DNA of 63,997 nt, filler included, from Stramenopiles sp. TOSAG23-6 (Eukaryota): the NCBI GenBank assembly GCA_900128565.1. It is 10 parts of 10 records of this genome, joined end to end, with 100 filler letters (N's around TTAATTAATTAA, not from the genome) between each part and the next. Parts side by side here need not be neighbours in the genome. Positions count along the whole stretch, not along the records: positions 1 to 6,341 come from LT636717.1; positions 6,442 to 12,772 come from LT636718.1; positions 12,873 to 19,201 come from LT636719.1; positions 19,302 to 25,628 come from LT636720.1; positions 25,729 to 32,048 come from LT636721.1; positions 32,149 to 38,465 come from LT636722.1; positions 38,566 to 44,882 come from LT636723.1; positions 44,983 to 51,298 come from LT636724.1; 2 more parts are not named here. The stretch is one strand, 5' to 3'. This document shows positions 3,246-63,300 of the stretch, piece after piece (position 1 is the stretch's first letter; every line of letters begins with the position of its first letter). A model generated the notes under the pieces. That model saw nothing but the letters and a program-made list of their open reading frames with translations. It made no database searches and was not told where the DNA came from. The position numbers and the translations under genes are program-made.

Positions 3246-6120
3246 ATGGAAGCTTTAGACGCCGCATTCCCCACCATTGGTGAAGCCATGCCTTCAAATG
3301 TCACCACATTTGATGATAATGGTAAGAAGAAAAAGAAAAAGAAGAAGGATGCTTATGGCTTTGCAGCATTTGGTTTGTGCAAAAATGTCTTTGGTGCAAT
3401 TAGGCGCATTGGATATAAACAACCCACACCCATACAAAGAGCGGCTTTACCTCCAGCGTTGTCTGGTGCAGATATTGTTGCCATGGCTAGAACTGGTTCA
3501 GGTAAGACTGCTGCATTTATTATTCCTATCATAGAGCGTCTTCAAGTGCATAATAAACGCATGGGCTGTCGAGCAGTACTGATATCTCCAACTCGTGAGC
3601 TCGCTACTCAAACGCTTAAATTTGCACGGGATCTTTCTAAGTTTACCAACCTTCGTTTGTGTCTTCTTGTTGGTGGTGAAAGTATTGATCGACAGCTGGA
3701 TGTCTTATCAGCAAATCCTGATATTATTATTGCTACTCCTGGTCGAATCACACATTTATTAGAAGAAGTCAAAAGTTTTTCTTTAAATGCCGTTCAAGTT
3801 TTAGTCTTTGATGAAGCCGATCGTCTATTTGAGATGGGGTTTCGTGATCAATTAAATGATATTCTCAAGGCAACACCAGACTCAAGACAAACTATGCTCT
3901 TTTCTGCAACAATGCCAAAAATGTTGGTTGAATTCACACGTGCAGGATTACAAGATCCATCCTTCATTCGATTAGATACTGAGTCTCAAGTGAGTCCCAA
4001 CTTACGAATGAATTTTGTGACAGTGCGCCCTTCAGAAAAACCAGCAGCTTTATTGCATATCTGTGCAGAGATTATTGGTCCAGCACAGCAAACAATTATT
4101 TTTGTGTCTACGAAGTATCATGTGGAATTTATCACTGAACTTTTGAAAAGTGCTGGTCATCTTTGTGCCTGTGTCTATGGTGCACTCGACCCGATGTGCC
4201 GTAAAGCAAATATTGCAAAATTTCGTGCTGCTAGGGCACAATTTTTAATTGTGACAGACGTAGCCGCTCGTGGTATTGATATTCCAATGCTTGATAATGT
4301 CATTAATTATGATTTTCCAGCTAAGCCAAAGTTATTTGTACGTTTTCATTATGAATATCAATTTTTTTTTTCGTACGAAATGTTGTACCTAACAAATTTC
4401 GAATTTTTTTTTTTTTACAATACATGTGCATCGTGTTGGTCGTGCTGCTCGTCAGCATCGGAATGGTAGTGCTATTTCAATGGTAACTCCCGAGGACCTG
4501 CCATATATGCTCGACCTCATGCTTTTTCTTGGCAAGAAGCCAGATAATGGAGATGGTAGAGGTCCTAAATTTACATTAATAGCCGATGGTGGTGATACAA
4601 CTGCTATTGAAAAAAATGACTCTATGAAGAAGAAAACGATCTGCAAGCCTGAAAAGTATTCTCTATCTACGCAGCAACCTGATGAATTACACTATGGTGG
4701 ACTACCTCGATTTCTATTAGATAGTTCTGTTGAAGCATATGAAAGTTATAAAAATTCAAGTGTAGCAATACAAGAGACCGAGAGAGTGGCTCTAAATGGA
4801 TATAAGGCTTATATCCGGACACGTCCTCCAGCGTCCAAGACATCTCAGCATAGATGTAAAGAACTGCATCCTATTCTAGTACATCCTCTTTTCCGAGAAG
4901 CAGCGGAACTTTCAGGTAGCAACGCTACCGCTGAAATATTTGCTAGTAAACTTTCTAATTACAGGCCTTCTATGACTGTGATGGAAGTACAAAATTTGAA
5001 ATCTGGCAAAGGTGTTTTGGATGTTTTGAGAGCTAAGCGAATTGCACACCAGCGCCATATATATACAGTCCGTACTACCGAAAAGAAGAAGCATTCAGAA
5101 TGGTTATCTGCCGGTGGGTATGAAAATGATACAAATGATAAGCAAATGATCAAAACTGAAACTGTTTCAGGTGGAAAACGAAAGCAAAACCAGTGTAATG
5201 ATATCAGTGGTTCAGATACAATTGAAATATATAAAAAACATAAAACAAATAAAATAGCAAAATGTCAAGCAAAAATTCCAAAGCGAAAGTTATCGAAAGC
5301 GGAGAGAAAACGAATGAAAAAACAACGATTAAATCCGGCGATATCAAACGCGGTCAATATAAACATCAATACAGATGATAATACAAATAACACTACAAAC
5401 AATAATACAAAAACTCCATTAAGTTTCCGTGATAATTCAGTGTTTATTAATGTACGCCAATCGGATAGCGAGGTAGCAAGTAGTCGTGGTCTTTCAATAC
5501 GAGATAATGTCAATGGTGATACAGCTATAGCTGCTAGGCAACATATGCAAGAAGCTGTGCTCGATCTGATGCCCGATGAAGTGTCAAAATTAGGTGAACA
5601 GAGACGATTCTTCTGGGATAAGAAGAAAAGAAAATATGTAAAAACGTCATTAAATGACATAAAGGCTAATAAAAATAGAGTCAAAACTGAAAGTGGTAAA
5701 ATGGCTAAAAAGGAAGTTGGTAAGATTTATGAACAATGGTGTAAAAAGAATAAACGAAGCATTCTATCCATCGGGGAGGAAGAAGGTGGTGGTACTGCTG
5801 CAAGTACTATAGCCTTTGAAGCGCAAGGTATGGATTTAAAAACAATGCGAAGAAAAGGTTTATCTCGTGGCGCAATCCGGGAGAAAGAGAAGAAATCAAA
5901 GGCAGCTACTTCTGGTGGCGAATTGTATAGCGCAGAAACGATTCGAAAACAACGCAAAGAAAAAGAGAAAAGAAGAGCTAAAAATGGCCGAGGGCGTGGT
6001 GGTCGTGGTCGAAGTAGAGGTAGAGGAAGTGGTGGACGTGGTGGTAAAAAGATTCCAGGATTTGGGCAAGGTAGAGGTTCCAAATTTGGCAAGGCGGGAT
6101 CAAAAAAGCGACGACGTTAA
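3246..6120 (+). CDS. DDX54: DEAD-box RNA helicase DDX54/DBP10; exons 3246-4337 and 4426-6120
   Basis: Q motif, ARTGSGKT, PTRELA, DEAD, SAT; motif VI (KLF|VHRVGRAAR) is restored by removing 4338-4425; DBP10CT-like WDKKKRKYV...KTESG and RGG tail. Confidence 0.93.
4338..4425 (+). mobile_element. Repeated non-canonical intron (GT-AT), 88 nt
   Basis: GTACGTTTT...TCGTACGAAA...GTACCTAAC...ACAATACAT; removal joins two DDX54 ORFs in frame. Confidence 0.9.
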
Positions 6121-6341
6121 TTAACCATAGTAATATGATATTCTAATAAAATCAGTTTAAATTGTTTTAATTTTCATATGTGCTTCATTAGTAGAAAGAG
6201 TCCATGAACAAATATTCTTATCAAAACATCATCATTTTACTCAAGTCATTTGAAATAAATGTAACCCATGAGAGATGCAAAATGAAATAGCTCAGCAAGC
6301 AGGCTTCCAAACGGGTCCCCCACGATCGTACTAGCTGCTCT

Positions 6342-6441
6342 NNNNNNNNNNNNNNNNNNNNNNNNNNNNNNNNNNNNNNNNNNNNTTAATTAATTAANNN
6401 NNNNNNNNNNNNNNNNNNNNNNNNNNNNNNNNNNNNNNNNN
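6342..6441. other. Artificial contig linker (44 N + TTAATTAATTAA + 44 N); also at 12773, 19202, 25629, 32049, 38466, 44883, 51299 and 57704
   Basis: Identical 100-nt spacer with stops in six frames; the contigs between linkers run in descending length order from 6341 to 6305 nt. Confidence 0.98.
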
Positions 6442-6520
6442 AAAAATATTTCAAAAAAAAATCGTTAGGTACAAAATTTCGTACGAAAAAAAATTGAATT
6501 TGAAAAAATATAAAACGTAT
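6442..6520 (-). mobile_element. Repeated intron, truncated by contig end; AT donor
   Basis: Minus strand ATACGTTTTAT...TCGTACGAAATTTTGTACCTAACG...GAAATATTTTT. Confidence 0.8.
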
Positions 6521-7788
6521 GCGCAATGCTAAACCCATAATTGAAATTACGAGTCAAAACTGTTTCAGGAATTCTTTTTTCTGTTTGTAGAGATCTACCT
6601 GAACTATTATTTATGACCGATAAAGCTGTAGCTGGTGAAATACCTGATGATTTCAAAGCAAGTAATCCTTCGCACGCTACAATAAGATGAGTTGCATTTA
6701 GACAATTATTGATGGCTTTTACAGAGTGAGCTGATCCTATTGGACCAACAACGACGACTTTACCTTCCTTGCTAAAGGTGCTGGAAACAAATTCTAGGGC
6801 TCGTTGAGACGGATTCTTTTGACCTCCAATCATCGATGTCAAAGAACCCTGAGCTGCACCAGAAGGACCGCCACTTACTGGACAATCAACATAATCTATT
6901 CCATATTGCGATAAATCTTTAGCTATTTGAACTGATAAAGTTGGATCTCCCGAAGTCGCATCAATCACTAAAGCACCACTCTTCAAAATTGCTCCAATTT
7001 TAGTACATATGTCTTTCACGATGACGCTTGTTGGTAAACAAAGCACACAAACGTCTACACTAGACAAATCCTCCAGGCTGGTCATAACAGTTGTACCAAA
7101 TTCAGCAGCATGTTGCTCAGCGATCTCTTTTGTCCTATTATAGACTAACACTGAACCAGAGCAATATTTTGTGAAACATATTTAACATTTGAAATTGTAG
7201 TATATGTTTTAATAATACGGATTTTTTTTGAGAGAAAAAGATAATTTCAAAATTTAACGTTGGAAGACTTACGTGTTTCTCTAGATGAGAAGCCATTGAG
7301 TAACCCATCGCTCCCAATCCAATGAATGCTACATTCTTTTCTTTGGATTTTTCACAAATCTTTGCCTTTTTCGCAGTATCCAATTGATTTAAAAAATGCT
7401 GTTGTTCTCTTAAAAACTTGGGCGAATAATCAACGTTGACTTTATCGAACTTTGCCGCCAAAATGATATCGTTAATGGACAGACTCTTGAGGGAATGAGT
7501 TTGAAGTGATATTGTTACCGTTCTGTACGACGTCAAGGAAATATCTGGATGATGTTGTTCAGTTTCAGCGATTTCTGCAAATGCGTTTATTGCAGACATC
7601 GCAGATTTGAAGTTACGCGCTACAAAGGAACGTTTTATCACTGGTGAGTTGTTGTCACTGTGTTTCCATAGTGGATGTGTTTGTAAAAACGAAGAAAGCT
7701 CAGCGGAAGAAAGTTCTTTGACGTCTCCTCCTCTTGTTGCACATTTCTGGCAATGCTGTTCAGCCAAAGGGGATGCCTTATTCGCCAT
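6521..7788 (-). CDS. Pterin-4a-carbinolamine dehydratase fused to 3-hydroxyisobutyrate/beta-hydroxyacid dehydrogenase; exons 7788-7273 and 7163-6521, 3' end missing
   Basis: AETEQHHPDI...LQTHS...LSINDIILA (PCD), then AFIGLGAMGYSMA, VYNRT, DCPVSGG, VKAINN (HIBADH/GarR family). Confidence 0.85.
7164..7272 (-). other. Non-family intron, GTAAGT donor, inferred AT acceptor, 109 nt
   Basis: Ends ...AAATATGTTTCACAAAATAT; no in-frame AG lies upstream of the conserved VYNRT motif. Confidence 0.65.
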
Positions 7789-8051
7789 CTTGAACTTCGG
7801 GAGTGTAGTAGTTACCTAATAGGATAGCCGATAGTAAAGTCGAAGTAGCATAACACTAAGAGTGCACTGGAGTCTTTAGTAGCAAATCAACAAATTGACC
7901 GTTCAAAATAATAATCAAAAATCATTTTTTTTCGTGTTTTTTTGATTGATTGATGTCAATGCGATGTCAATTTTTGTTTGTGTTTTATTTCATCCCTAAA
8001 GAAAGAATAGAAACTTTTAGACGATCAATTTTTCAACTATCTTTCAATCCG

Positions 8052-9327
8052 ATGCTCGCTTGTGTTAGAAATACCCCAAAACATGTCCGAGTACAATTAG
8101 TCCGACACTTGTCAGCTGCGCCAGCACTTCCGGACTGCCCAAACTTTTCGTCTGGTCCAACTGCCAAACGACCAGGATGGTCATTTGACAATCTTAATGC
8201 TGCTTGGCTAGGCCGTTCTCACCGTGCTGCAGGACCGAAACAACGACTTAAAGATGTTATTGATGCCACTCACGAGTTGTTGGAACTTCCTTCAGACTAT
8301 CTTGTTGGCATTGTTCCTGCTTCTGATACAGGCGCGTATGAAATGGCAATGTGGTCCATGTTAGGTCCACGACCTGTTGATATGTTTTATTGGGAATCGT
8401 TTGGCAAAGGTTGGGTGACAGACTCTGATAAACAACTTCAACTGAAAGATCAAAATCACTATTCTGCAGAATATGGTGAGTTGCCAAATTTATCTCTGGC
8501 AAATCCAAAGCATGATATCTGCTTCACTTGGAATGGCACAACGTCGGGTGCATGTGTGCCAAACGCAGATTTCATTTCAGAAAATCGTGAGGGTCTTACC
8601 TTTTGCGATGCTACATCTGCTGTCTTTGCAATGGATCTTGAATGGCCAAAGCTTGACGTTACAACTTTTAGTTGGCAAAAGGTTTTAGGTGGGGAAGGCG
8701 CGCATGGTGTCATTGTCTTGAGTCCTCGAGCGGTAGAAAGACTTGAGAATTTTTCTCCCGAGAGACCTTTGCCTAAGATTTTTCGAATGACAAAAAATGG
8801 AAAACTTGACGAAGCAATTTTCAAAGGGTCTACAATCAATACTCCATCTATGCTATGTGTTGAAGATTGTCATGATGCTCTAAATTGGGTTCGAAATATT
8901 GGTGGTTTAAAAGCAACAATGGCACGTGCAAATGAAAATCTTTCAGTTATTGAAAAATTTGTTTCTGAGAATGAGTGGATTGACTTTCTTGCAAATGACC
9001 CTTCATCACGTTCAAATACATCAGTTTGTCTTACACTAGATGCGAAACCTGAAGATGTCAAGGCAATGTGTACACTATTGGAGGAATCAGGTGCTGCATA
9101 TGATATTGGCTCGTATAGGGATGCTCCGCCAGGTCTTCGCATTTGGTGTGGTTCAACTGTTGAGTCCAGTGACTTACGTGTATGTTTTATATGAATTTCT
9201 AATTTATTTTTTTTTTTCGTATGAAATGTAGTACCTAACGATTTTTTTTTTGAAATATTTTTTCACAATACGTGCCCTAATGCCCTGGTTAAAATGGGGA
9301 TATGAGCAATGTTGTATTAAGAAATAA
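8052..9327 (+). CDS. serC: Phosphoserine aminotransferase (alphaproteobacterial/Methanosarcina type) with probable mitochondrial presequence; exons 8052-9179 and 9274-9327
   Basis: [50 protein letters not shown]; spliced tail [15 protein letters not shown]. Confidence 0.93.
9180..9273 (+). mobile_element. Repeated non-canonical intron (GT-GT), 94 nt
   Basis: GTATGTTTTATATG...GTACCTAAC...GAAATATTTTTTCACAATACGT; TACGTG direct repeat at both junctions. Confidence 0.88.
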
Positions 9328-9391: not shown

Positions 9392-10877
9392 TTAATCAAC
9401 GATTTCAATTTTCTTATGTTTTTTACATACTAATGTATGCGCGTCTAGAAACAATTTATTTCTCCAATTTGATTTACTCAATTTTTTACCATCCATCTCC
9501 TTCTCAAGAATTTCATCGGCTTCTTTTATTGATTTTGCAGCTTTAAGTTTTGCTAATCGTCGCCAAAACATTATCAATGCATTATTTTCATCAGGGTACT
9601 TGCACAACTCGCCATTGGCTTGGGCACACAAATCTTTGACCCTTCTTAGAGGATGTTTCAGTTTACGATGCATTTGAATACCACTTGCAATTTCTAAATC
9701 TTTTATACTAATTTGGTAATCTGTTAAAGGTCTTTCTATAGGGGCAGGTTTGTTTGGAATAACAAATGCTGCTGCGCATCTCCTTTTACCTGCGTCATCT
9801 TCAGCCAGAATAACTTTAAACAAATGAGTAGGAACTGCTATACCATGTATTGTGAAAAAACATGAAATCACAAAATAAAATCGTTAGGTACGAAATTTCG
9901 TACGAAAAAAAACTGTACATAAAACATTGAAAAAAACTAAAACATACATGATGTCCAATCAGAGGATATTGAACTAATTGAACTTTCTCACTTTTGGACA
10001 TTTTATCAGGAAGAAAAAGTGGCCCAGATATAACAAAAACATGATCGAAAGGCTTCCAGTTTTGTTTGGACACCGTTGAACTATTTGGGTTATTTTGGTT
10101 ATTTGGGTTGGGAAGACTTTTACGTTTGAGAGATTCACTATATTGACTATTGTCGATCGTATTGTCTACTTGAGTTTGACTAGTTTTATTCACTTTATTA
10201 TTCTTTGGTTTCTTCTTTATACCCTTCACTAATTTTCGCGTAAGATATTCTAATCTAAGCCAATCAGAGCCATTGAAACACCTGTCAAGTGAAAATATTC
10301 TTACAGTGCTCTGATATTAGTAAAATTGTAGGAAAAATAAATAAATTTGAAATTGTTTCTAGACTACACACATTTCCTGTGGCACTATATTTGATGATAG
10401 TTGAAAAGTTGCATCGAGAGTTTGTTGTGTTTCCTTATGATTAGCTGCAGCAGCAAGGTGTCCCTTAGAATATCCACTATTTTTATAATCAGACGCTGTT
10501 TGATTAAGATGTTTTGGGACTGCTTGGTCAGATGTGAAACGAGAATGACTTCGAGAAACACCACGTTCTTTCTTGCAAAAACTCTCCTTGGTCAGGTGCT
10601 CTGCCACCCATTCTGGTAGGCGAAGGCGGGTGTTTATAGAAGTGACGTAGCTATCACTTTTTTCCTCTACAATATGCACAGTAGGAATACCATATGGGCA
10701 AATTGAATTGAACTTTGGCTGCAATTGCACTTGCACTGTAGGACTTGTAACCGGGTCCGGGTCTTTTTGAACTGCACCTGTGTCAGTTTTATAGAAATAA
10801 CGAAAACAATTATCAATGGTTATACCGAGGATAATACCCGCACCTAAACCATTATTGAATCGTTGCCCAAAAAGCAT
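9392..10877 (-). CDS. DNA/RNA non-specific endonuclease (EndoG/Nuc1 family); exons 10877-10372, 10281-9948, 9844-9392
   Basis: PEWVAEHLT, DYKNSGYSKGHLAAAANH, SNIVPQ, VISGPLFLP, IAVPTHLFKVIL. Confidence 0.9.
9845..9947 (-). mobile_element. Repeated non-canonical intron (GT-AT), 103 nt
   Basis: Family motifs present; restores YPLIGHH|GIAVPTH. Confidence 0.9.
10282..10371 (-). other. Canonical GT-AG intron, 90 nt
   Basis: GTGTGT...TACTAAT...GAATATTTTCACTTGACAG; restores NIVPQEMCFNGSDWLRLE. Confidence 0.85.
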
Positions 10878-11183: not shown

Positions 11184-12719
11184 TTAACGACGTCTTTGGG
11201 AAACTTTAAGCTTTGCCATTTTCTTTGCTAAAATATGTTTATAGTCACGAATTGCACCATCGAATTTTGTGACACCTTTGTCTTCACAGACCCAAATTTC
11301 ATTTGCAACTTGATCAATTAAACGAAAATCATGAGAAACTAAAACTACGCCACCTTTAAACATTTTAATTGCTTCAACAAGACCCTGAACAGCCTCAATA
11401 TCTAAATGATTTGTCGGCTCATCGAGTAAAAGCACTCCGCATGTATTGTGAAAAAATATTTTTTTTTAAATTCGTTAGGTACAAAATTGCGTACGAAAAC
11501 AAAATTCGATTTTTTTGTTAAAAAAAAAATAAAACATACTAGGAGTCATGGCAATCATAGCAAATACAAGTCGACTCCTTTGACCATCACTTAGTAAACC
11601 AATGGGTGATGTTTGATTTCCTCGTGTAAACCCAAAATTACTTAAATAAGCAATCCATGCTTCTGCACTTCTTGGTCGACCAGTCCCTTTCGCCACAGAT
11701 TTTGGAGGAAAAGTCTTTTGCATAAATTCTAGAGGCGAAAGATCTAAATCAAGAACATCAGCACTGTGTTGATGGTACAGCGCCATTTTTAATTTACTGT
11801 GCGTTTTTACTGCACCTGTAGTGGGTAACAATTCCCCACTCATTAGTTTTAAAAGAGTTGACTTTCCACAACCATTAGGACCAACCAAAGCTACTCTTGA
11901 ATCATAATCAACAGCTATATTCAAATCTTCATACAAATAATCCTCCTTCTTACCGCTGTACCCAAATGAAACATTATCAAAAGGCATTACAGGAGGGGGT
12001 AAACGATCAGTCTCTGGAAAAGTAAATACCAAAGATGACTCACGCACCTGTGGCTTTGCTACGGCATCATTTTGAATTTTTTCTAAAACTCTTTTTTTAG
12101 ACTTTGCCGAAGCTGCCTTTCCATTTGCTTTATTCACTCGAACGTAAGTTGATAACTTCGCCATGTCAGCTTGTTGCTTTTCGTATTGCTTCACCTGCAC
12201 TCTTTCTTCATCAGTAGTCACTTTTACAAATGTCTCATAATTACCTCCATAGTACTTCAGTTTAGCTCCTGCACTTCCAGAACCTCCGCTATCAAACCAA
12301 GGATTGGGTTTTAACCAAATTGTATCTGTACATACAGCATTCATAAAATCTTCTGAATGAGTTACAACTACTAAACATTTATTCTTTGGGTAATTTGCTA
12401 AATGTTCCTCCAACCATACACATGCTTCCAAGTCTAAATGATTTGTTGGTTCATCCAAAAGTAAAAGCGAAGGCGCGGCAAATAAAGCTTTTGCTAGTGA
12501 AACCCTCATCCGCCAACCTCCAGACATGTTTTTAGTTTTTCTATCCATTGGCACTAATCGATCACAGAATCCAAGACCACTAAGAATTAATCGAGCACGT
12601 GGTTCTGAACCTACTGGGTCAAGTTCATCTAGACGGTCGTATATGGCCTCCAGACGATCATCTTCAGGTCCTTCCTCCTCCATTATTAACTCAGCTAATG
12701 CTTCTAGTTTAGCACACTC
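11184..12719 (-). CDS. ABC-F family ATPase (ABCF2/ARB1-like), 5' part missing; exons 12719-11540 and 11440-11184
   Basis: [23 protein letters not shown] twice, [26 protein letters not shown]. Confidence 0.92.
11441..11539 (-). mobile_element. Repeated non-canonical intron (GT-AT), 99 nt
   Basis: Family motifs; gives [16 protein letters not shown] (an in-frame AG 6 nt further downstream is an alternative). Confidence 0.8.
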
Positions 12720-12772: not shown

Positions 12773-12893
12773 NNNNNNNNNNNNNNNNNNNNNNNNNNNN
12801 NNNNNNNNNNNNNNNNTTAATTAATTAANNNNNNNNNNNNNNNNNNNNNNNNNNNNNNNNNNNNNNNNNNNNCTCCTTCGATGGAAAGAAAAT

Positions 12894-12986
12894 GTATCTT
12901 TTTATTTTTTTTCAAATTCCAATGTTTTTTTCGTACGAAATTTTGTACCTAACAAAAACAATTTGAAATATTTTTCCAAAATACAT
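12894..12986 (+). mobile_element. Repeated intron (GT-AT), 93 nt; 5' side probably mis-joined
   Basis: Family motifs; its upstream flank duplicates the exon end and donor at 14432-14474. Confidence 0.8.
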
Positions 12987-15160
12987 CTGCGTCAGCTATC
13001 GCACTTGGTCATTCTAATGTAGCATCAATATCGTCCGCTTCAGCAACGTCATTAGTAGCTGCGTGTGAAGTCCCAAGATTGTTCTTGAGGAGAGTAAAAC
13101 ATGGTATAATGACACGTGCTCCAGCCCCAACCGGTAGAGGTGGTGTTCATAAAGCAGCTTTGACAATGAGGAAAATGTTACGTAAACAAAAAGGTGGTCA
13201 GTATAACGTTAATCGTCTGTGTTCGTTTGATCAAATAAACTTTGCTTTATCTGGTGCATCAACGGAAGAGAATTTATCTGGTGTTTTTTGTGGTGGTGTT
13301 CGACCAATCTGGATACTTTGTGTTCATGGTGAAATCATAGTAATGCCTTTAGTCTTACCACATAAAGAAAAGGTGAGTATGTTTAATGGCATGCCACCCG
13401 TGACTACTTTTGCACCTTTTAGTTCACCGTTTAATCCTGGAGGTTTTGTGTATTACCATCGTTCAGGTGCACTTCGTATTTGTCAATTTTCAACACCAGA
13501 GGATGAAGCAGACGGTGCTAGTAAAAATAACGAAACTGGTGCTGAGCCACGTGGTGCTCTTCGTAGTCACTTTAGTGTACATGGCGGTGGTTCTATCGTT
13601 GTGCGAAAGGTTGATATGAAATGTTCTCCTCGACGTATTGTTTACATGGGTGATGCTGTCGTAAATCCTAATAACAATTCTTTAGGGGAAGGTGAAGATG
13701 AAACTTTATTACCAACATATGCAGTTTTATTTCAAACAGAAAGAGCTCGCGATATTCGTCGTGAAGCAACAGAAGAAGCTCTTCAAGTAGACGTTATTGC
13801 TGATGGATATGATCAACGTCAGCGTGATAATTATATTAATGATAATTATTGTGAAGCGAAGAGAGACATGGGTGGTGCACCTCCACTTTTTGTTCGATCG
13901 TATGATGTACGACTTATTCAATGTGGTGGTGATGGTGTTGGTTCTTGTACTGAAATATCTCGAATAGAATTAAAACCAAGAGAAGTAGGTACATGTATGA
14001 CTTTATTGTCACTTCCATTGAGCGAAACGGATCATTCAAAGAAAGAGGCTGCGGTAGCTGTTGGAACAATGCTTATACGCCCAAAAAATGAAGATGAAGA
14101 AGCAATGGGACGTGTAGTATTGTATTCTGTGAAACATGTAAATGCAAAAAGTGCGAATGCGGATGGAGTAGATGAAGAAGAACAACAACAACAAACAATA
14201 CCTGTCTTGAAAGTAACATATGAAAAAGAATTTAGAGGTGGTGTTAGTGCAATAACACAGATGAAGCTTCGTAAATATATAGCTCTGAGTTCCGGGTCTA
14301 AAATTTTCCTTTTTAAATGGATGAAAGAGTCACTTGTAGGTCTTGCCTTCTTTGATGGACCTGTTTACATCCACTCCTTAATGGCAATTCGTGATTTTGT
14401 TGTGTTTAGTGATGTTCATAAATCTGTGCAACTCCTTCGATGGAAAGAAAATGTATCTTTTTATTTTTTTTCAATTTTTTGTCTAAATTTTTTTCAAAAC
14501 ATTTTGTACTTAACAAATTTTAGTTTTTTTTTGAAATATTTTTCCAAAATACATGATCGACGTTTAGTTCTATTAGCCAAAGATTATGACCCATTAGATT
14601 CGACCGCATCATCATTTATGATTAATGACCGTCAACTTGGACTTGTCGCAGCTGACGAACAAAGTAATTTGACTGTTTTTAATTATTCGCCATTGGATGT
14701 TCATAGTAGAGGTGGACATAAACTTCTTGTAGGGGCCGATTTTCACCTTGGTCAAAAAATTTTATGTATGAATCATCGTCGTATGCTTCCTGATCGCGTT
14801 GGTCGGAAAGTATTACGGTATGCTTCTCTTTTTGGAACATTGGATGGAGGTATTGGTGCGTTGGTACCTATTGATGAAGGTGTATTTCGTCGATTACACA
14901 ATTTACAACGTGCAATGGTGATGGGTCTTTCTCAGAATGCAGGATTAAATCCATGGACATATCGAACATGGAGAGAACCTGGTGGGCACGGTTGTCTTTT
15001 GCGTAATCCCAAAAGACGCATTGCTGACGGGGTTGTTCTTTGGAAATATCCAGATTTAGATTATACGATGCAATTGAATTTAGCTAGATGTATTGGTAGT
15101 ACACCAGAAATGATTTTAGATAATTTAATGCGAATAGATCTAGCCACAATATTATTGTAA
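12987..15160 (+). CDS. CPSF1: Cleavage and polyadenylation specificity factor subunit 1 (CPSF160), C-terminal part; intron 14453-14554
   Basis: GVFCGGVRPIW, LVGLAFFD, SDVHKSVQLLRW, LLAKDY, SRGGHKLL..ADFHLG, FGTLDGGIG, AGLNP. Confidence 0.9.
14453..14554 (+). mobile_element. Repeated non-canonical intron (GT-AT), 102 nt, in frame and stop-free
   Basis: GTATCTTTTT...GTACTTAAC...GAAATATTTTTCCAAAATACAT; restores WKEN|DRRLVLLAKD. Confidence 0.88.
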
Positions 15161-15439: not shown

Positions 15440-18400
15440 ATGATGTCAGGTAGATATACATGTTATGAATTATACATATTAATTTTATTGTTTGTATGTT
15501 TTAATGGTCTCTCCGTGGAGAATCCTTCTCTGAAAGTATATTTTAATGTGACAAAAGTGGATGCACATGACTCATTGTCGTCTACTCCAAACATACGTAT
15601 TGAACAAATATCTATGGAAAAAAATGAATTGATTGTAAATGTAAACACAAAAAGAATTGATCAAAAGCATATATTATGCTTTTCAATCTCAAAAATCTCC
15701 GAAGAATCTGAAGAAAAGGTAGATTATTCTTCTTTGAGTGTATTATGCGATAATGGTACAATAAATACGTTTCTCACATCTGAAGTCACCTCAGAAATAT
15801 ATGTATTATCATCATACGCCATGTTTATCAATAGTAGTAAATTTAGGGTAAAGGCAAGTATATATATGAAATCACCTTTATTTATAGATGGTGTTCCTGT
15901 GAGTAGCGTCTTACACTTGAAGAGTGTTGACACTATCAAAAATAGTGGACCAGTTACATTTTCCGAAAAAGTTGTTGATTTTTCTAAAACGACAAGTAGT
16001 ATAGAAGATGAAGAAGTTTTTTTTCACCCAGAAACTGGAGGTTTACCTTTGTCATATGTATCATCTCCTTTACGTAAACAACTGTGGAAGTCTACAGAAC
16101 AACTGGATAAACAAACTAATGATGGTGAAACTTCTGATGGAGAGATAGTTAGTTCTTTGTTGAGTGTATTACCTACAGAATCAATACCCATAGAATCTTT
16201 AGTCAGTGCTGCTAAGAAGGACCGCGTGCACGCATGGCGATTTGATAATGTTATTCTCGATGTCGAAGCAAAAAATATTATATGTATGTTTTTTAGTATG
16301 ATGTTTTTTTCGTTTTTTTTTTCATACGAAATTTTGTACCTAACAATTTTTTATTTTTTTATTTTTTACAATACATTAATACAAGGACTAAAACAACCCA
16401 ACGTTGACCTTCCTACCAAACCAATCACTACTACAAACTATAAAAGATTCCTTCAAGCAATCTCCCAAAATTGGACAAAGACTTCCTCTGATCTTTGGAG
16501 TATTGAGACTAATATGTTTATCAAATTGAGTCCACCCATTCTGACATTCTTGCCAACTTTACCTGGATCAAAATTATTTGTCTTGCAAAAATATTTTGAT
16601 TCTCAGTTGTATCACAGGAATAAATTGAACACAACATATTCATATAATAAAACACATATTACGACAAATAATATAATGACACGATGTAAATCTAATGTTC
16701 ATCACGGTTTTATAGGTTGGCGTTGTGATTTTGGTCAACATAAAGATTGTCTTGGAGATCCATTACATATCAATTCATGTCGTAAGCTAATGTCTTTTAT
16801 CAGTCAATTAAGAAATCCTTCATTTTTTCCGTGTCGGTGTCTGGATATAGAAGATTTAAGTCACTTTCACGAAAATAAAAATGACACAATATTATCAACG
16901 GCTTCACCAATAAATACGAAAAATGGTACAAATAATGCAAATAGACAAAAATATGATGTAAAAGAAGAAAAAATTGATTGTATTACTCAACCCGTTGTAA
17001 TATTTTCACTACCACTTCCGTTATACTATTGGCATGTAATGACAGAAGGCATTCTTCCACTTGCACATACTATATCACACATTGAACGCCGTATAAAACA
17101 TGATAGTCGATATAAAGAGAAAAATTATACTTCGCCACTTTTGGTAGTAGCACAACCATGGACGAGTCGATTAGTTCCACAATTTGCTCAGGAAATGTTG
17201 AAATCTTTAGGAGGTCCCGTCATTTTATCAATGGAAGATTTTTCAAAAGGTTCAGGTTTATCTAATGTAAGCCGTTTTTGTATGTTAGATGTAACTATAG
17301 GTTTTTATCCACAAATAACACAACATAGTGAAGTAAGAGCAGCAGCTTTGTTTCTCATGAATAAGATGAGTGTCCGTCGGAGAACGTCTCGATTACTTCC
17401 TCATATACCTCATACATCTGCCATTGATGATGAATTAATAAAATCAAAAAAAACAAAAATGAAAAATGTCAGTCCACAAAAACCTCGCGTAGTTTTTATT
17501 CAAAGATCTCGACGATGTGCTGCAGCTGATGCAAGTTGGATTAAAGTATCCAAAGAAATAAATGGAAATAGTACAGGAGATTTATTTGATAATAATTTTG
17601 CTATGGTTCGCAATCATACATCATCTAATAGTACTTTTGTGAATAAAACTAATGAAAAATCAAAACAAAAAAAAATCAAAGCATCAATTCGTACGGAAAA
17701 TGCTTCTCGTGTCATTATTAATATGGATGATCTTGTAGCTGTTGCCCTAAATCTTGGTGCTGATGTTGAAGTAGTTACCATGGAAAGCTTGAGTTTACAA
17801 AAACAAATCGAGGTAGCTCATAGTGCTGATATTTTAGTCTCCGCTCATGGATCAGCGTGGGCTAATGTTATGTTTATGCGGACTGATTCCGCGGCAATTC
17901 AACTATTAGGTTATGGTTTTAAAGAAGGCTGTTTAGCTTTAGTTCATCAACAAAGAATGCTTTTTCAGAATTCTACTTTTCCTACAGATGATTTTTGCGA
18001 TGGTATTGGAGTCGATTTTCCTGCATTGGTACCAGGTACTTACTTTGAATTGGAAGAAATGGATCCGCATCATTTCAAACCGTTATTTACTTTTCCTGAT
18101 CGCTATTGTCAAAAGAATAAATCCTCATCTAACTTGACTAAAAGTTATGAAGAGTGTAGAAAAATAGAGGCAAATAATGAAATGCTAGCACGGGAGTCTC
18201 CAAGATGGCTTTGGAGCTATCATTTTAAAAGAGCATATCATTACTTCAAAGGCGCTCATTTTTATGTTGATACAAAGAGATTTTATCGTGTTATGAAACG
18301 AGCCTTGGCTGTTGTTCTTGCAGCACCGGAAACAGAAAAAGAAGCTTCTGTTGCATATGACGTCAGAGAAGAATTCGAAACGAAAGAATATTTCCAAAAG

Positions 18401-19384: not shown

Positions 19385-21208
19385 GTTCCTTACGAATAAT
19401 AATATCATTATTCAATGCGTTGTGTTCGACTGTTTCTTCTTCATCAGTCGTGTTGTACTCTTCTGATGTCATGTCGACTGTATCGATACATCTTATTTGA
19501 TGATCTGTTGAATTCTTTATTGTTCTGCTAAGAATTCTTATTGGATCATTGTCTTTATTCCTTTTTTCTGGAATAGAGTGTACAGTATCTTTAGGGTTAG
19601 GTTTTTTTTCTGGAATAGAGATTACATTATCTTTAGAAAAAACATCCGAAGAATCTTCTGTTCGTAATAAACGCGGGCAAAATATCTTTTCAGTGCGTAC
19701 ACTGTAGTTATTATCAGAATCATCATCGTCACTCATTTCTTCATCATTTGTTGGTACCGACACAACAGTACGTATTGTAAAAAAATATTTCAAAAAAAAA
19801 TCGTTAGGTACGAAATTTCGTATGAAAAAAACATTAAATTAGAAATTCATATAAAACATACACGTTGAACGTGATCTGTGAGCCATTGAAGCATACTCAC
19901 TTGATCAGATACAGACAATGCAATAATACCCTGTCTGATTTGGTATGGGGTGAAACTTTTCGAAGGTACCAACATATTGTCAGATTTAATAGTTTCAACG
20001 GCTTCATTGTTGACTGAGTTTGAATCATCATTACACAGATTTGGTTCACTATTTACTGATTTTACCTCCTTACCATGAACTCTCTCTTGAATTGTATCCT
20101 TTTCAATAATATCTACTTGTTGTTGTTGGTCGTGATTTTTATTCATGGAAGAAACAGTTGCTTTTTTATGATGCATTCGAACTCTTGATAGCTTGTCGTT
20201 TCGTTTTTTTCGTTGTCTTTCAGATGTCAAGGAACATCTACTTTCAGTATACAAATTTTCCAATGACAACGTAAGACTGTCGTTTCTTTTGTCAGCTACA
20301 TTTGAAGAACATCGTAATTTGCTATTGCGGCCATGATAAAGTGACGTCCTACTCGCTCCATGGCAAAACTTTTTATTTTGTGTTTTTAATGATTTCGGTC
20401 CTAATGTCATGCGCCGTTTCGATTGAACAATTTTAGTACGAAATTTACCACGACGTTCAAGTTCATGCATACTTGAACGATTCGATACAAACCTCACAAA
20501 ACCTCTACCATTGTTGGTATTTTTGATATTTTTCTTGGTTCTTAGAGTAGATTTGTTTTTTGGTGTGAAGCTCATTGGAACACTAGATTTACTACTTAAT
20601 TTTATTCGTTTGGGCTGACTCTGACTGGTAAGAGTTGAGTTAGGTCGTTGATTTTCTTCGTTTCCAGAAATATCTCTAACATTTCTCGTCAATCTTCGAC
20701 TTTTCTTGGTCTGTTGTTTTGGATTTCGCTCTGCAAAAGATGCTACAGTAGAACGACGTGACAGCTCACGTTTGTCTCTAGAAGATTTGGTAGTCTTTCC
20801 ACTCATTTTTTCATTCTGTTTCTTCTTCTTTCNCCATTCATCCAGCTTTTCCCGCCGAGTTAAACGACGTTGAACTAAATTGTTTTGCATTATATCGTTA
20901 TTTGGGTCAACGCCTCCTGATTTCCATGCTTCGTTGGCAAACACTTCCCCGGCAGTCCAACCTTCTTCACTCGTACCTAAAGATGAAATCTTCGATGCTC
21001 CTAACTTGGATGTAGTTTTTGTTTTACCTTCTCTCTCAGGTCGAGAATCCATCGATTTTTTTTTCAAAAGACGAAGTGGTTTGCCTAGATGTGATGATTT
21101 TAACATCTTTTTTGGGGTTTCTCGGCGTATCACGGGTGAGTTCTGTTGTACCACCCTCAAAGCTCTTCTACGCATCTTCGCGGAACGTACTCCACTTTCC
21201 ACTACCAT
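19385..21208 (-). CDS. Basic low-complexity protein of unknown function; exons 21208-19862 and 19769-19385, 3' end missing
   Basis: Two ORFs joined in frame by removing 19770-19861. Confidence 0.65.
19770..19861 (-). mobile_element. Repeated non-canonical intron (GT-GT), 92 nt
   Basis: 5' end nearly identical to the 9180 copy; ends ACAATACGT. Confidence 0.85.
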
Positions 21209-44504: not shown

Positions 44505-45037
44505 AATTATGGACTATAAAGTTGTCCGCAGAATCTTTCTTTCTGAAACAAGCCAATTTTGGTAGAATTAAACTGAAGCGGAAAATATTATTAGAAATTT
44601 CCCTTATCTCTCTATGATATAAATAGGCTGCTAGTACAGATAGAGAGATAGATGGAGACTTGAGTTCGTTCGATGTTTTCGACGTAGACAAACCTGTTTT
44701 ATTAAGACTAGCTATACTACTATAGTATATGTAATACAAAGTATATCATGGCATGTGTTTTTTTCATCGGGTGAATTCGATACGATAATCAGATATTTTA
44801 AGCAAAGAATCGCATTTTCACAAATAGATTACAAGTATCAAATCGTATCGGTTTATATGATTATTATACAAATATTGTATCGNNNNNNNNNNNNNNNNNN
44901 NNNNNNNNNNNNNNNNNNNNNNNNNNTTAATTAATTAANNNNNNNNNNNNNNNNNNNNNNNNNNNNNNNNNNNNNNNNNNNNTCTTGCTTACTATTAAAG
45001 AAGAACTCTCTCAATTAAGACAAAAAAATGAAAATTA

Positions 45038-45107
45038 AAAATAAAAATCGTTAGGTATGGAATTTCGTAAGAAAAAAATATATTTGAAATTCATCACGAA
45101 AACCTAC
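45038..45107 (-). mobile_element. Repeated intron, 5' part; 3' end replaced by chimeric sequence
   Basis: GTAGGTTTTCG...TCTTACGAAATTCCATACCTAACGATTTT. Confidence 0.65.
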
Positions 45108-52583: not shown

Positions 52584-52693
52584 ATGTATTGTGGAAAAAT
52601 ATTTGAAAAAAAAATCTAAAAAAATTGTTAGGTACAAAATTTCGTACGAAAAAAAATTCGATTTTTTTGTTAAAAAAAATAAATAAAACATAC
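52584..52693 (-). mobile_element. Repeated intron (GT-AT), 110 nt, bridging exons of two different genes
   Basis: Full consensus; donor is phase 0 (importin) and acceptor is phase 2 (PDK1 PH). Confidence 0.8.
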
Positions 52694-57703: not shown

Positions 57704-57803
57704 NNNNNNNNNNNNNNNNNNNNNNNNNNNNNNNNNNNNNNNNNNNNTTAATTAATTAANNNNNNNNNNNNNNNNNNNNNNNNNNNNNNNNNNNNNNNNN
57801 NNN

Positions 57804-57862: not shown

Positions 57863-58347
57863 ACTAGTAGAACGAGTCAGAGACATTTCTACTTTATTAC
57901 CCGATTCACTGAATGATCGTCGTTTTTTTGAATGATTATTACGTAAATTGTTTGGTTCACTTTTTGTAGACGATGATGAATTTATTTTGGAAAAATATTT
58001 CAAAAAAAAAATTTTGTAAATTTGTTAGGTACAAAATTTCGTATGAAAAAAAAATATTTCAAAAAAAACTAAAAAAAATATTTCAAAAAAAAATAAATTC
58101 GAAATTGAACAAAAATAAAACATACATGTAATGTAATTGTACTTAATTTTGGAAAACTTTCCGATCGCGAATTTTTCCTTTTTTTAGTATAAGATTTATT
58201 ACTTGAAGTACTTTGACTACTTGATGAGATGACCATATTATTTTTTGTTGATGAATGATTTTGATCAAAAGTCTTTGTATCCGTGTTAGGGTTAGGNTTG
58301 TGAGTAGGGTTAGGGTTAGGGTTGTGAGTAGGAAACAATGATTTGTC

Positions 58348-58391
<44 letters not shown>

Positions 58392-59348
58392 CAAAAATAG
58401 TTGATGTTTCACCTAAATTATCTAAAAAAGTACAAATTTTTTGTTCTTCTTTAAGAAATTCTTTTGATAATTTTGACATTTCACTTATTTTTTTTTTATG
58501 TGTAGTTAGAGAATTCATTGCATTGGTTTGTTGACCTAAAGCTTCTTCCAATACTGATGTCGTTTGTCTTACATTTTCTTCCGCTACTCTAAAATTTTGA
58601 CGAGCTAAATTTAATTTCATTTGTGCTTGTTTTACATTTTCTGAAGTTTTATCAATTCTAGATTTTAAATTTTCTGATTCAGATGAAATAAGTTGTAAAG
58701 AAAATTGATTCACTTTATCCATTTGTTGATATTCTTTTAATTTAGTATAATGTACAACTAATCTCTTTTGGCAAATAGATGATAGAGCAACAAATGCCTC
58801 TTCAAAATCAGCTGTACGTAACTCTTCAGGGATCTTTTCTCGAATGACAAAAACTTTCGATGGTCCAAGATGCTTTTTGGAAAAATATTTGAAAAAAAAT
58901 TAAAAAAATTTTGTTAGGTACGAAATTTACTATAAAAAAAAATTCGATTTTTTTTTTTTTTAACCAAAAAAAAAATAAAACATACAGGACATGTTGTTGA
59001 GTCTTTGACTAATTCTTTCAACCAACGAAACACTTTTGATATATCGTCAACGGAATGTGTTGTTGTACAAAAGTGTAAAAGATGAGTAATTTTTTGTGAC
59101 AGAACGGATTCACTTGTACGGTGATCCTTTCGTAAATCTTCGCAAATTCGTTTCAAGTCTAACTGTGGGACAAAAAACTTATTTTGTAATTTTACTTGAG
59201 TGACAGGAGAAAGATCATTTGCTTTAAGATATTCTTCAAGCGCTGAACGCTCATATGTCTGTCCATCCGATGCTAACACTGGGTCTTTAAACAGCGCTTT
59301 AGTTAGTGGACAACACAAACTATTGGGATATTCTCGTTGATGAGCCAT
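57863..59348 (-). CDS. U-box domain protein with coiled coil and poly-Q; exons 59348-58986, 58869-58126, 57979-57863
   Basis: LCCPLTKALFKDPVLASDGQTYERSALEEYL...SPVT; frames are continuous after removing two family introns. Confidence 0.82.
57980..58125 (-). mobile_element. Repeated non-canonical intron (GT-AT), 146 nt, internally duplicated
   Basis: Ends CCAAAATAAAT; contains three GAAATATTTTT motifs. Confidence 0.8.
58285..58390 (+). repeat. TTAGGG-type repeats and a (TTG)n microsatellite inside CDS
   Basis: GTTAGGGTTAGG...TAGGGTTAGGGTTAGGG; about 14 TTG units encoding poly-Q. Confidence 0.85.
58870..58985 (-). mobile_element. Repeated non-canonical intron (GT-AT), 116 nt
   Basis: Ends CCAAAAAGCAT; joins TTCP|LGPSKVF in frame. 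Confidence 0.85.
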
Positions 59349-60228: not shown

Positions 60229-60392
60229 TAGTACCTAGGGTTAGGGTTATAAAAAAAAATATACAATTTTTACTTTATTTTTTTTTTTTGTTTTTTTTTG
60301 TTTTTTTTGTATAACATAGCTGATGAGATATTCACTTTTTTCATTATAAAAAGTAGAATGTAGAATGTTTTATAGAGGATTATAGAGATTGA

Positions 60393-63300
60393 CTATTGTC
60401 TATTTTTATGTCGATTTCGCCACATTCTTGAATCACGATATGTCTTTTTTTTGTTAGGGTTAGGGTGGTTAGGGTTAGGGTTGTTCATGTGTTCTATTTT
60501 TTTCGATAATTGTCTTGTATTTTCAATNTTATTTCGATTTTGTGATTTGTTTTTACTATTTTTTACTGTTTTTACTGTTTTTACTGTTTTTACTGTTTTT
60601 ACTATTTTTACTGTTTTTACTGTTTTTACTGTTTTAGTATTTTCTTCAGTTGGATTCAAAATTTCAATCGAAAATTTTGGAAGTATACATGATTTTGTGA
60701 AAAAAAATATTTCAATTTTTTTAAAATTGTTTTTTGTTAGATACAAAAAAAGATACAAAATGTACTACAAAAAAACATGTAAAATTGGATGTTGAAAACG
60801 TATTTGTTTTTGTCATGTTTACTTTTTTTTTAGTCTTTGTTTTTTGTGTATTTTCGATGATTTTTCTTGTTTTTCTAGGTACTGAAAAAGGTACAAAAAT
60901 TGTATCTTTTTTAGAACTTTTTGAACTTTTGATTGTATTTTTTATATTGCGTTTATTTCCACTATACGTAGGGTTAGGGTTAATTATTTCATTCTTTTTC
61001 TTATTGATTGTATTTATTGACATATCAATAGTATTAAGATGATTGTTTGATGAAACCCATGGGCACAAGTCATCATCATAAAAAGTAAGAGTAGGGTTAG
61101 GGGTATTATTCAGTGTCGTTGAATTTAGTCTACTTTCTTTCGTTTTGTTTGTCATTTTTTTGTTTTTTGGTTTTTGTGCCAATTTTGTTTTTTTTGTCTT
61201 TTTTGCTATGTTTGTAACATTGAAGTGGAATATTACATCTTTATTACAAATAGTATTACTATTTTTCATACTTTTCATTTCATTTTCAATATCATTTTCA
61301 ATATCATTTTCAATATCATTTTCAATATCATTTTCAATATTATTTTCAGTATCATTTTCAATATTATTTTCAATATTATTTTCAGTATCATTTTCAATAT
61401 TATTTTCAATATCATTTTCAATATTCTGTGTATTTAAAATAGTACAAATATGTTGCACCATATTCTCTGTATCAGATAAAGTTGCCCCAATGCATTTACC
61501 ATATACAACTCTTTTTGCTTTATAATTATTATGACATATTGGTCTTTGTATGGTTTTAGCTTTTTGGTGTATACCAAATATTGTAGATCTCATGTTTGAT
61601 CTATGTATATTCTGCTTTGATGATTTCAATCTTGATATAATTCTATTAGACCTTGTTTTGTTTTTTATAGAAGATTCTGTTGGTCGTTTCATCATTCGCA
61701 AAATTGTTCCTTGAAAACTAGATTGTTTATTGGTATACTTATTAGGTATCTCGTTGCACAAAAGTACTGTTTTGTCTTTTATTTTTACAGTTTTTAATTG
61801 TGTATATTTCCTATTTGCTCCATCAAGAGAATACTTTATTCTATTTTGTGTTTCTCCTTTTTCCAAATGTATAAATTGTGAATTTGTAGTTGATGAAAAA
61901 AGATGATGAACAACATCATCATATTTATTCTGTGAATTGTATCTTTGCTTTTCTTTTGTACATGTTGTACAATGATCTTTTTGATTTTTGTCTGTAGTAT
62001 CATTGCATTCATTCTCCTTTTTTACTTGACTATATGTATAATCTATTGATTTTTGTTTTTTCGTTGATACTGCTGATTGTTGTCCATAAGAAGCTAAATC
62101 TATTATGACTTTATGTTTGTGTTTGTTTCTGTATTTCGGTCTACTTGGATACAAGAAAGACGTTTCCTTTGATAATTCGATACTATTTGAAAAAGGTTTT
62201 GGATTTATCTTTGTGCCATTTAAAACGACACTATGTTGTATTACGTTTTTTAATGAACAAAAATCGATAAAAGTTTTATTTTCTTTTATGCAGGGTTTTG
62301 TTTTATGTCTTATTTTAGATCCTTTCATAGCGACGCGTTTTACTTTTGTTTTACTGTTGTTTTTTCGATGAATTTGATGTCTATCATTGGAACTAATTTT
62401 CCGCAAAGACACTTTATTCTGGTAATTTGTTTTTATTCTTTGATTCTTCTCTGTTGCACACAAAACTTTATTATGTTCAATAGATTTAATTGTGTTGTTA
62501 TTTGTGTCGATAGTAACAATACTATCTTCTTTGTCAGAAGATGTGTTATCATCAGTGACACAACTAGCTATTGTATCAGTATCATTCGATTGACAACTAG
62601 TTGTTGTATCAGTATCATCAGCGTCAGAACTAGTTGTTGTATCAGTATCATTAGATTGACAACTAGAAGTAGTTTTATTTTGGGTATCTTCCACAGATAA
62701 TTGTCGAAGAGTCTTATTCGATTTGTTAGCAGATTCTTTATTGTACACGACTACTTTCTTTTTCATTGGTGGTTTTGAATATTTTTGAATCGATGTGTTT
62801 AGATTCGTTTTTATCAACTGTTTCTTTTCACATTTGTCGTTGATTGAAGTTTTGTTTAATTGTTCATATTGTGTTTTAACTTCGGAGCGATTCATCTGTC
62901 CATGTATAGATGAATGTGAACTATCCTGGATATTGAAATTTGATGTTTTATATAAAGTTACAGGACTGGAAGAGGGAACATTTTTCGTGTCGTTTTTGCC
63001 GTAGATGTTGCGTGATATTCGTAATGGTAGACCATTGTTACTGATCGCCGAAAGTATTGTTTGAAGTCTGTGAGAACAGCGGCTTTTTGTTACATCTTGT
63101 CTACACTTTTGTTTATCCATATTTTGTAATATATTTCTGGTGTAATTTGTCTGCTGTTTGTCGCCTTTATTCTTTGCATATTTTCTAATTGCTGGATATG
63201 GTGCAATGTTTGCATTATTTAATCTTCGTTTTCCATGATGTCTTTTGAACTTCTTTACTTCAGGCTTCATCTGTATATTACGAAAACGGTGAAAAAGTTT

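Follow-up and report, generated by a model that had tools for sequence, protein, structure and literature searches.

Introner-like elements whose 3′ ends are not AG in the genes of Stramenopiles sp. TOSAG23-6

The stretch of DNA analyzed here (the window, 63,997 nucleotides with filler included) comes from the GenBank assembly GCA_900128565.1 of Stramenopiles sp. TOSAG23-6 and carries, inside its genes, many copies of one short intron-like element that is the subject of this work. The window is made of ten contigs of about 6.3 kb each, joined in descending size through spacers of 44 N, TTAATTAATTAA and 44 N (positions 6342-6441, 12773-12872, 19202-19301, 25629-25728, 32049-32148, 38466-38565, 44883-44982, 51299-51398 and 57704-57803). 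As these are joined contigs and not one locus, neighborhood across a spacer is meaningless. The G+C content of the contigs is 33-39%, and most of each is taken up by long open reading frames (ORFs) on both strands. Pfam profiles identified a Dbp10/DDX54 helicase, a phosphoserine aminotransferase (PSAT), an EndoG-like nuclease, an ABCF protein, a CPSF_A/DDB1-like protein, an importin, a PDK1-type PH domain, a syntaxin and SelO, among others. Between 55 and 81% of the words of the second contig (6442-12772) were found in three seawater metagenomes from 2024, and 6-10% in three marine metatranscriptomes, which points to a marine microeukaryote; its genome is AT-rich, gene-dense and compact. The same contig is present in a small sequencing run of 2015, from which it may derive. 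The ABCF protein is 69% identical to that of Prymnesium parvum, and Dbp10 is about 60% identical to its counterparts in plants, algae, oomycetes and a labyrinthulid alike. Two compact lineages of low G+C content, Chrysophyceae-H and a new clade of Isochrysidales (bioRxiv 10.64898/2026.04.17.719054), are tentative candidates for its affiliation.

A sequence-only reading of the window had described about 23 copies of a family of near-identical introns, with 13 of them complete, and had proposed to build a profile from them. The family is real, as the 26-nt core of the element matched 13 places in the window at three mismatches or fewer and none in 100 shuffles. The profile built from the 13 listed copies detected 21 places at E <= 0.04, and together with a reading of the junctions our census came to 22 rather than 23 copies: 13 complete, six cut by a contig end, two in chimeric joins and one diverged (Table 1). 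They are 88-146 nt in size, lie within ORFs and are spread over at least 15 different ones. Every copy had been said to run in the sense of its host gene, and all 22 are indeed sense to the adjoining stop-to-stop ORF. A copy is interrupted at seven or eight of the 20 contig ends, which fits a very high copy number and, the window being ten joined contigs, marks the chimeric copies as assembly artefacts. In one of the seawater DNA runs (X2), the summed word depth reaches about 45,000 on the element and about 8.6 on unique sequence. Pairwise identity among the 13 complete copies has a median of 72% and a range of 58-94% (78 pairs). The description as near-identical therefore has to be given up, and a recent expansion fits such a median poorly.

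Beyond the window, a scan of metagenome contigs gave four loci, one of which (L003; 2475-2578, minus strand, on a 3.2-kb contig of 35% G+C) is a true copy, also sense to its ORF. It is 94% identical to the copy at 9845-9947, lies in a different gene and is flanked by ACAT at both borders; this resemblance points to recent movement within one subfamily. A scan of prokaryote genomes for the element gave one match, by chance, and a scan of viral contigs gave none.

The anatomy of the element is well defined. All 13 listed copies start with RTAYGT, contain an invariant CTAAC and end with the block TTTTYCAMAATAC followed by two bases, and the 13 coordinate pairs proposed for them are exact, each with an RTAYG start and with ends that are AT in ten, GT in two and TC in one. 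Conservation is concentrated in the 5′ RTAYG, a T-run with CGTACGAAAT, the TAAC inside GTACCTAAC and the 3′ block. Where the 5′ end can be read it is GT in 16 of 19 copies, mostly as GTATGT or GTACGT, and AT in the three others (6442-6520, 19302-19384 and 60689-60803). The invariant TAAC lies 33-48 nt from the cut, that is, the predicted 3′ end, and is followed by T-runs; it resembles a branch site and is predicted only. Unlike this variable distance, measured from the CTAAC adenosine, the 3′ block stands in a fixed register with the cut. Counted back from it, T-15, T-13, T-12 and A-7 are found in 18 of 18 copies, T-14 and A-6 in 17, and A-9 and C-3 in 15. The two points that the sequence-only reading did not contain are the copies beginning with A and this fixed register, and together they leave room for a mechanism like that of the minor spliceosome. 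The readable 3′ ends are AT in 15 of 18 copies, GT in two, TC in one and AG in none. The claim that the copies never end in AG thus stands, with the caveat that in the copy at 58870-58985 an AG that keeps the frame precedes the stated end by 3 nt, so that this copy could be GT-AG. The center of the element holds a perfect 12-nt palindrome, TTTCGTACGAAA (for example at 42918-42931), and its 3′ part holds palindromes like GAAATATTTC; these could be protein-binding sites of a mobile element rather than splicing signals.

Taking out each of the 13 complete copies as defined by the element left an open frame across the junction in every case, and in three of them the frame reaches the stop of the gene 17-49 codons later. 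In ten of the 13 copies the length is not divisible by three, and the flanking ORFs are therefore in different frames of the DNA. Pfam profiles continue across five copies, with matches such as Helicase_C to 96/110, CPSF_A 13-159 and 162-317, ABC_tran to 125/137, and Endonuclease_NS 115-162 and 159-220. The restored motifs, which had been announced for the conserved genes, were found in four of them. In Dbp10, the Helicase_C profile (9-96/110) ends at 4337, and removal of the copy starting at 4338 restores motif VI in the product PKLFVHRVGR, where the residue at the junction is F in 116 and Y in one of the 117 orthologues, out of 120 fetched, that have the motif. In PSAT the C-terminus is restored: the residue numbering of nine of ten homologues passes without a break between 9179 and 9274, where the conserved LMPWLxW follows. 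In ABCF, removal of 11441-11539 gives the ungapped spacing from the ABC signature to Walker B that is present in ten of ten homologues examined, picked from 120. In the EndoG-like gene, removal of 9845-9947 gives GIAV-PTHLFK, matching x-[VI]-A-V: the motif P[TS]H..K is present in 74 of 149 homologues, and the residues preceding it are V or I in 68, A in 49 and V in 67 of these 74. A multi-copy family, found only in sense and whose removal restores both frame and conserved motifs, is introner-like, as had been suggested.

All this could be a coincidence if the genes were spliced in the ordinary way, at whatever frame-keeping GT/GC..AG pair lies nearby. A stop-free pair of this kind is found within 45 nt in 12 of the 13 copies, so that a gene predictor can always find one. 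Such a pair is used by a public gene model, P0364 (371 amino acids), which is 100% identical to the EndoG-like gene (9395-10877, minus strand) over exon 1 and splices its copy as GT..AG, shifted by 10 nt to the right. The resulting peptide is VCFI, and the residues C, F and I are found at the junction in 0, 0 and 2 of the 74 homologues. The same model also takes out an in-frame low-complexity stretch of 177 nt (10053-10229, GTGAAG..GGAAG) as a putative intron. The other conserved genes argue in the same direction. The first AG in Dbp10 (+30) is in frame and would delete motif VI; in PSAT there is none before +33, and this first AG, also in frame, would delete the LMPWLxW segment; in ABCF an AG at +6 would remove two residues where the spacing has no gaps. 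Judged by homology, AG acceptors are therefore excluded in Dbp10, PSAT, ABCF and the EndoG-like gene. The first AG after CTAAC is out of frame in six of the 13 copies, and in the copy at 14453-14554 the AG located 10 nt past the CTAAC adenosine and the three that follow it are all out of frame. The offsets of the AGs vary between copies, whereas the cut defined by the element keeps the frame in 13 of 13, when one in three is expected by chance. By these comparisons the AG alternatives are idiosyncratic and wrong wherever they are testable, while one element-defined rule fits all copies, and we regard ordinary AG splicing, for which the in-frame AG of the copy at 58870 also speaks, as very improbable. 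A brute-force listing of GT..AG pairs between ORF pairs was uninformative.

The last two or more bases of the intron repeat the end of the upstream exon in nine of 14 complete copies (the 13 listed and L003). These repeats span 2-4 bases, with both copies ending in ..ACGT following ACGT and L003 following ACAT, and they are in large excess over the background frequency of AT (9.6%). Shuffling the flanks among copies gave p = 0.04 only, because most flanks are AT, and duplication is not fully separable from a target preference for AT, which remains compatible with the data. The covariation of the terminal AT or GT with the upstream exon looks, from the sequences compared, like a target-site duplication. 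The family would thus descend from a short, non-autonomous mobile element that inserted into many genes and survived only where it lay sense to transcription. Each copy would supply its own 5′ site (RTAYGT, mostly GTATGT), T-runs, the branch-site-like CTAAC and the 3′ block TTTTYCAMAATAC. The interval removed would extend from the first base of the element to a position two bases beyond ..AC, whose register with the 3′ block is fixed, giving an end in AT and sometimes GT. These last 2-4 bases would be the target-site duplication, which would supply the 3′ splice point.

Such repeats also allow the boundaries to be drawn 2 nt to the left. The intron would then consist of the element preceded by the first of the two repeated dinucleotides, and would end in the element's own ..AC (AT-AC mostly, GT-AC in two). 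The mRNA would be identical in nine of the 14 complete copies, the 3′ end would become AC in 14 of 18, and the pairing rule for the first and last nucleotides of an intron is satisfied by AT-AC. The two readings predict different mRNAs for the copies at 4338, 11441, 40368 and 58870. However, the copy at 4338 would then give Y at the Dbp10 junction where all but one of the orthologues have F, the 5′ dinucleotide would be mixed (AT in 10, GT in two and others in six of 18) and the conserved GTAYGT would be moved off +1. These shifted boundaries are in our view improbable.

The element might also be excised from the DNA, as are the internal eliminated sequences of ciliates, with one flanking repeat kept, or be removed from the RNA without a spliceosome, like the nonconventional introns of euglenids. 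The short direct repeats around nine of 14 copies, the exact removal and the possible pairing of the intron ends over 4 bp (GTAT/ATAC) would suit such a mechanism. Five of the 14 copies have no flanking repeat, however, and the orientation of all 22 in sense has no reason under DNA excision. Folding of the 13 copies gave no stable RNA structure (z from -1.99 to +0.59), the only end pairing being GTAT/ATAC. DNA and RNA runs were compared over the second contig (6442-12772), using Logan contigs; the RNA consisted of sparse contigs from three metatranscriptomes, and uncovered parts are uninformative. In seawater run X2 the contigs break inside, and extend into, all three copies of this contig, and among the listed DNA joints none passes over a copy. 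The same sites are thus occupied in an independent population of 2024, which argues against elimination at the DNA level. We consider excision of this kind hardly probable. Even when it is taken together with the shifted boundaries and the idiosyncratic use of AGs, the three make an unlikely set.

The depth ratio of element to exon was about 1-4 in two polyA metatranscriptomes and about 5,000 in DNA, as removal from mature mRNA predicts, although the contrast is weak, depths being poor measures. One polyA contig stops at 9180 with two unaligned letters, as a spliced read would, an overhang too short to count. Among transcript-derived proteins, no hit to the final 100 residues encoded by exon 1 of PSAT exceeded 71% identity, and searches with ABCF and Dbp10 gave distant homologues only.

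From these patterns we infer removal at the RNA level by a spliceosome, whichever its type, of elements with an origin in transposition. The reading that we favor, with somewhat better than even confidence, is that of introner-type introns removed at GT..(AT), with the 3′ point given by the element's own 3′ block and with the major spliceosome as the more likely machine. The latter is preferred for its textbook signals, GTATGT and a motif resembling TACTAAC: a 5′ GT with the extended consensus, a branch-like motif and a pyrimidine tract are all present, and only the 3′ AG is absent. Several observations weigh against this reading. A is the first base at three of the 19 readable 5′ ends, the host genes of which look intact, and an A at +1 combined with a T at the 3′ end should not be tolerated by the second step of U2-type splicing. 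To our knowledge, a U at the last position has no precedent as a standard acceptor of the major spliceosome. No RNA joint spanning a copy was found among the joints listed for the second contig in the sparse Logan contigs, a non-polyA RNA run had a DNA-like depth of the element, and one polyA contig has the 3′ end of an element joined to the exon, which represents unspliced RNA or DNA carry-over. Inverted termini beyond GTAT/ATAC are weak (summed score of 50 versus 39.8 +/- 4.7 in shuffles). To these are added the identical mRNA obtained with boundaries 2 nt to the left in most complete copies, and the frame-keeping AG pairs, which leave AG use in unconserved genes possible copy by copy.

The copies that start with A and the fixed register could be explained by a U12-like minor spliceosome with changed motifs. 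The introns and mRNAs would be the same, the cut would be set by the distance from a branch site within the 3′ block (A-9, TTYCA), and the terminal dinucleotide would be free. The purine at +1 (G in 16 and A in three of 19) is consistent with this, as are the likeness of RTAYGTTTT to RTATCCTT or RTATCYTT, the block itself with A-9 in 15 of 18 copies and the ruler-like choice of the 3′ point with free terminal bases, which is a habit of U12-type introns. The accessible portions of a preprint on Physarum polycephalum (Larue, Elias and Roy, bioRxiv 10.1101/2020.10.12.336362) describe an expanded set of U12-type introns. Their non-canonical pairs include GT-AT (17%) and AT-AT (8%), the A of their TTTGA branch motif is placed 9-12 nt before the cut, and a transposon was proposed as their source. 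The window family resembles them in its R at +1, in including both GT-AT and AT-AT introns, in a cut placed a constant, small number of bases after a T-rich motif with a final A, and in the proposed source. The 5′ site in Physarum is RTATCYTT, in contrast to RTAYGT here, and the window family adds a strongly conserved CTAAC far upstream. Positions +5 and +6 are GT and not CC or CT in nearly all copies. GTATGT is a perfect major 5′ site of the yeast type, and RTAYGTTT departs from RTATCCTT. The most conserved motif, GTACCTAAC, with its CCTAAC 33-48 nt from the cut, is too distant for a U12-type branch site (TCCTTAAC, 10-20 nt), and the 3′ block is only loosely similar to that branch motif. An Rfam scan of the window gave no matches, so there is no small nuclear RNA gene in it. 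On balance, we find a minor-type machine unlikely.

The window also contains introns other than these copies. An ordinary GT-AG intron (10282-10371) lies in the same EndoG-like gene as the GT-AT copy at 9845-9947. Its removal gives NIVPQEM-C-FNGSDW, and the spacer has three or four residues in 61 and two in one of the 62 homologues, out of 149, that have the motif; P0364 splices it as well. The organism therefore does use AG, and a spliceosome accepting non-AG ends, as proposed by the sequence-only reading, would apply to the element family and is not a genome-wide rule. The 3′ part of this intron, GAATATTTTCAC plus 7 nt, lines up in register with GAAATATTTTTTCAC plus AATACAT in the family. 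Global alignment with the family gave a weak similarity (mean score of 38.8; shuffles 30.3 +/- 2.9, with a maximum of 40.0 in 300), and nhmmer found no link between this 90-nt intron and the family. The second case is the intron at 7164-7272 in the 3-hydroxyisobutyrate-dehydrogenase-like gene. It is spanned by the NAD_binding_2 profile (1-21 and 24-149), and residues of the PDB chain 1wp4_A match on both sides. With its GTAAGT donor, which starts at 7272, there is no in-frame AG, and one in-frame end is TTTCAC plus 7 nt, that is, AT in the register of the family. Both introns look like older relatives of the family; if they are, almost every intron in the window belongs to it. The gene itself is part of a reading unit (6522-7815, minus strand) that joins pterin-4a-carbinolamine dehydratase and 3-hydroxyisobutyrate-dehydrogenase-like domains, interrupted by the GTAAGT intron, and looks like a fusion gene.

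A broader proposal, which we put forward tentatively and with slightly less than even confidence, is that this mobile family is the dominant intron class of this uncultured marine lineage, with thousands of copies and nearly all introns of the window. The 3′ point would be read off the fixed-register block whatever the last two bases (AT, GT, or AG in an old relative), by a ruler replacing the AG rule, in a modified major or a transformed minor spliceosome that tolerates A or G at +1. If this were true, genomes of this kind would carry systematic errors at such junctions in their standard gene models, and the second catalytic step would choose its 3′ site by a ruler in place of the AG rule.

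Short, sense-biased repeat families make up many introns of the compact genomes of the marine picoeukaryotes Micromonas and Aureococcus, where these introners have canonical GT-AG ends; the window family is alike in the former respect and unlike in the latter. The nearest described case, by the accessible portions of the papers compared here, is that of Chrysochromulina sp., whose multi-copy introners carry their own 5′ splice site, take the 3′ site from a 4-bp target-site duplication and lack obvious terminal inverted repeats (Gozashti et al. 2022, PMC9860276). Their acceptors are canonical, whereas the duplicated bases of the window family are ACAT- or ACGT-like and contain no AG, a comparison made by description only. 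The introner elements of Amoebophrya, also a marine protist, have ends other than GT-AG and direct repeats of 3-5 nt that span the borders of exon and intron (Farhat et al. 2021, PMC7789003). They form hairpins through inverted repeats of 8-20 nt and show no preferred terminal dinucleotides, in contrast to the window family, which keeps GTAYGT and CTAAC, departs only at the 3′ end and has no stable fold. In the animal Fritillaria borealis, transposon-derived introns with signatures of target-site duplication and non-GT-AG ends, AT included, are processed by the spliceosome (Henriet et al. 2019, via the review PMC11282704). Their pairs are mostly AG-AC and AG-AT, while the donor of the window family stays GT. 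In our literature search no paper turned up on the window family, on its consensus strings or on introners with GT-AT ends; the supplementary tables of introner surveys, which could list such families, were outside this search. Single-cell genome papers on marine picoeukaryotes do not mention splice sites in their accessible portions. Large introner surveys need annotated introns and discard families with unfamiliar ends unless these are supported by RNA, by the accessible text of PMC12130899, and would for this reason have missed the window family.

The flexibility of the spliceosome can be gauged from the few lineages in which ends other than GT-AG are spliced. The window family would keep a textbook donor and branch motif and give up the AG, which isolates the choice of the 3′ site as the variable and would offer a natural system for asking what defines the site of the second step. 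Bursts of intron gain are at present best explained by introns that arise from transposons. Predictors that allow GT-AG only mis-model such genes, as P0364 does, so that gene sets, protein families and intron statistics of abundant picoeukaryotes are biased.

Table 1. Element copies and related introns in the window, with positions counted along the whole stretch.
Feature	Position	Strand	Ends and remarks
Copy, Dbp10/DDX54 helicase gene	4338..4425	+	GT..AT, 88 nt
Copy cut by contig start, 3-hydroxyisobutyrate-dehydrogenase-like gene	6442..6520	-	5′ end ATACGTTTT, A at +1; NAD_binding_11 profile 1-72/122 stops at exon end
Diverged family-like intron, GTAAGT...TTTCACAAAATAT	7164..7272	-	Boundaries tentative
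Copy, phosphoserine aminotransferase gene	9180..9273	+	GT..GT; ACGT before both borders
Copy, Endonuclease_NS (EndoG-like) gene	9845..9947	-	GT..AT, 103 nt
Ordinary GT-AG intron, same EndoG-like gene	10282..10371	-	90 nt; possibly an old relative of the family
Copy in ABCF gene, between ABC signature and Walker B	11441..11539	-	GT..AT, 99 nt
3′ part of a further ABCF copy, cut by contig end	12720..12772	-	Ends ..ATACAT
Chimeric copy, assembly join through repeat	12894..12986	+	5′ flank duplicates flank of 14453
Copy, CPSF_A/DDB1-like gene	14453..14554	+	GT..AT, 102 nt
Copy, large ORF with Glyco_transf_61 domain	16284..16376	+	GT..AT, 93 nt
5′ part of copy, cut by contig end	19149..19201	+	Flank AT, then GTATG
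Copy cut by contig start	19302..19384	-	5′ end ATATGTTTT, A at +1
Copy	19770..19861	-	GT..GT; ACGT before both borders; 88% identical to 9180-9273
Copy, thioredoxin-domain gene	22283..22385	+	GT..AT
Copy, LRR_6 gene	40368..40458	+	GT..TC; odd one out, 3′ boundary uncertain
Copy, syntaxin/SNARE gene	42883..42974	+	GT..AT
Diverged copy, GTAGGT...CATACCTAAC..., EF-hand gene	44983..45107	-	Without the usual 3′ block; may end AG; downstream exon off contig
3′ part of copy at contig start	51399..51437	+	Ends ..ATACAT, before UBA-domain ORF
Chimeric copy, importin N-terminus joined to PDK1-type PH domain	52584..52693	-	Assembly join
5′ part of copy, cut by contig end	57651..57703	+	Flank AT, then GTATG
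Copy with internal duplication	57980..58125	-	GT..AT, 146 nt
Copy downstream of U-box exon	58870..58985	-	GT..AT; in-frame AG 3 nt upstream of end
Copy, low-complexity ORF	60689..60803	-	AT..AT (ATACGTTTT...ATCAT)

Some minor observations concern the assembly and the ORFs themselves. The first 46 nt of the third contig repeat 14432-14477, in the region of the chimera (12873-12986). At 39729-39876 (plus strand), one LRR gene has two long ORFs that share about 150 nt in different frames, with nothing intron-like between them, possibly through a sequencing frameshift of amplified single-cell DNA. About 25 single Ns are scattered over 26255-32000, in the 2,096-codon ORF of the fifth contig, and may be masked or ambiguous base calls. 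Tandem repeats of 12 nt and 9 nt (61236-61461 and 60551-60649) lie inside a long low-complexity ORF, of KTV type on the coding strand, and a 33-nt repeat is found at 62547-62673.

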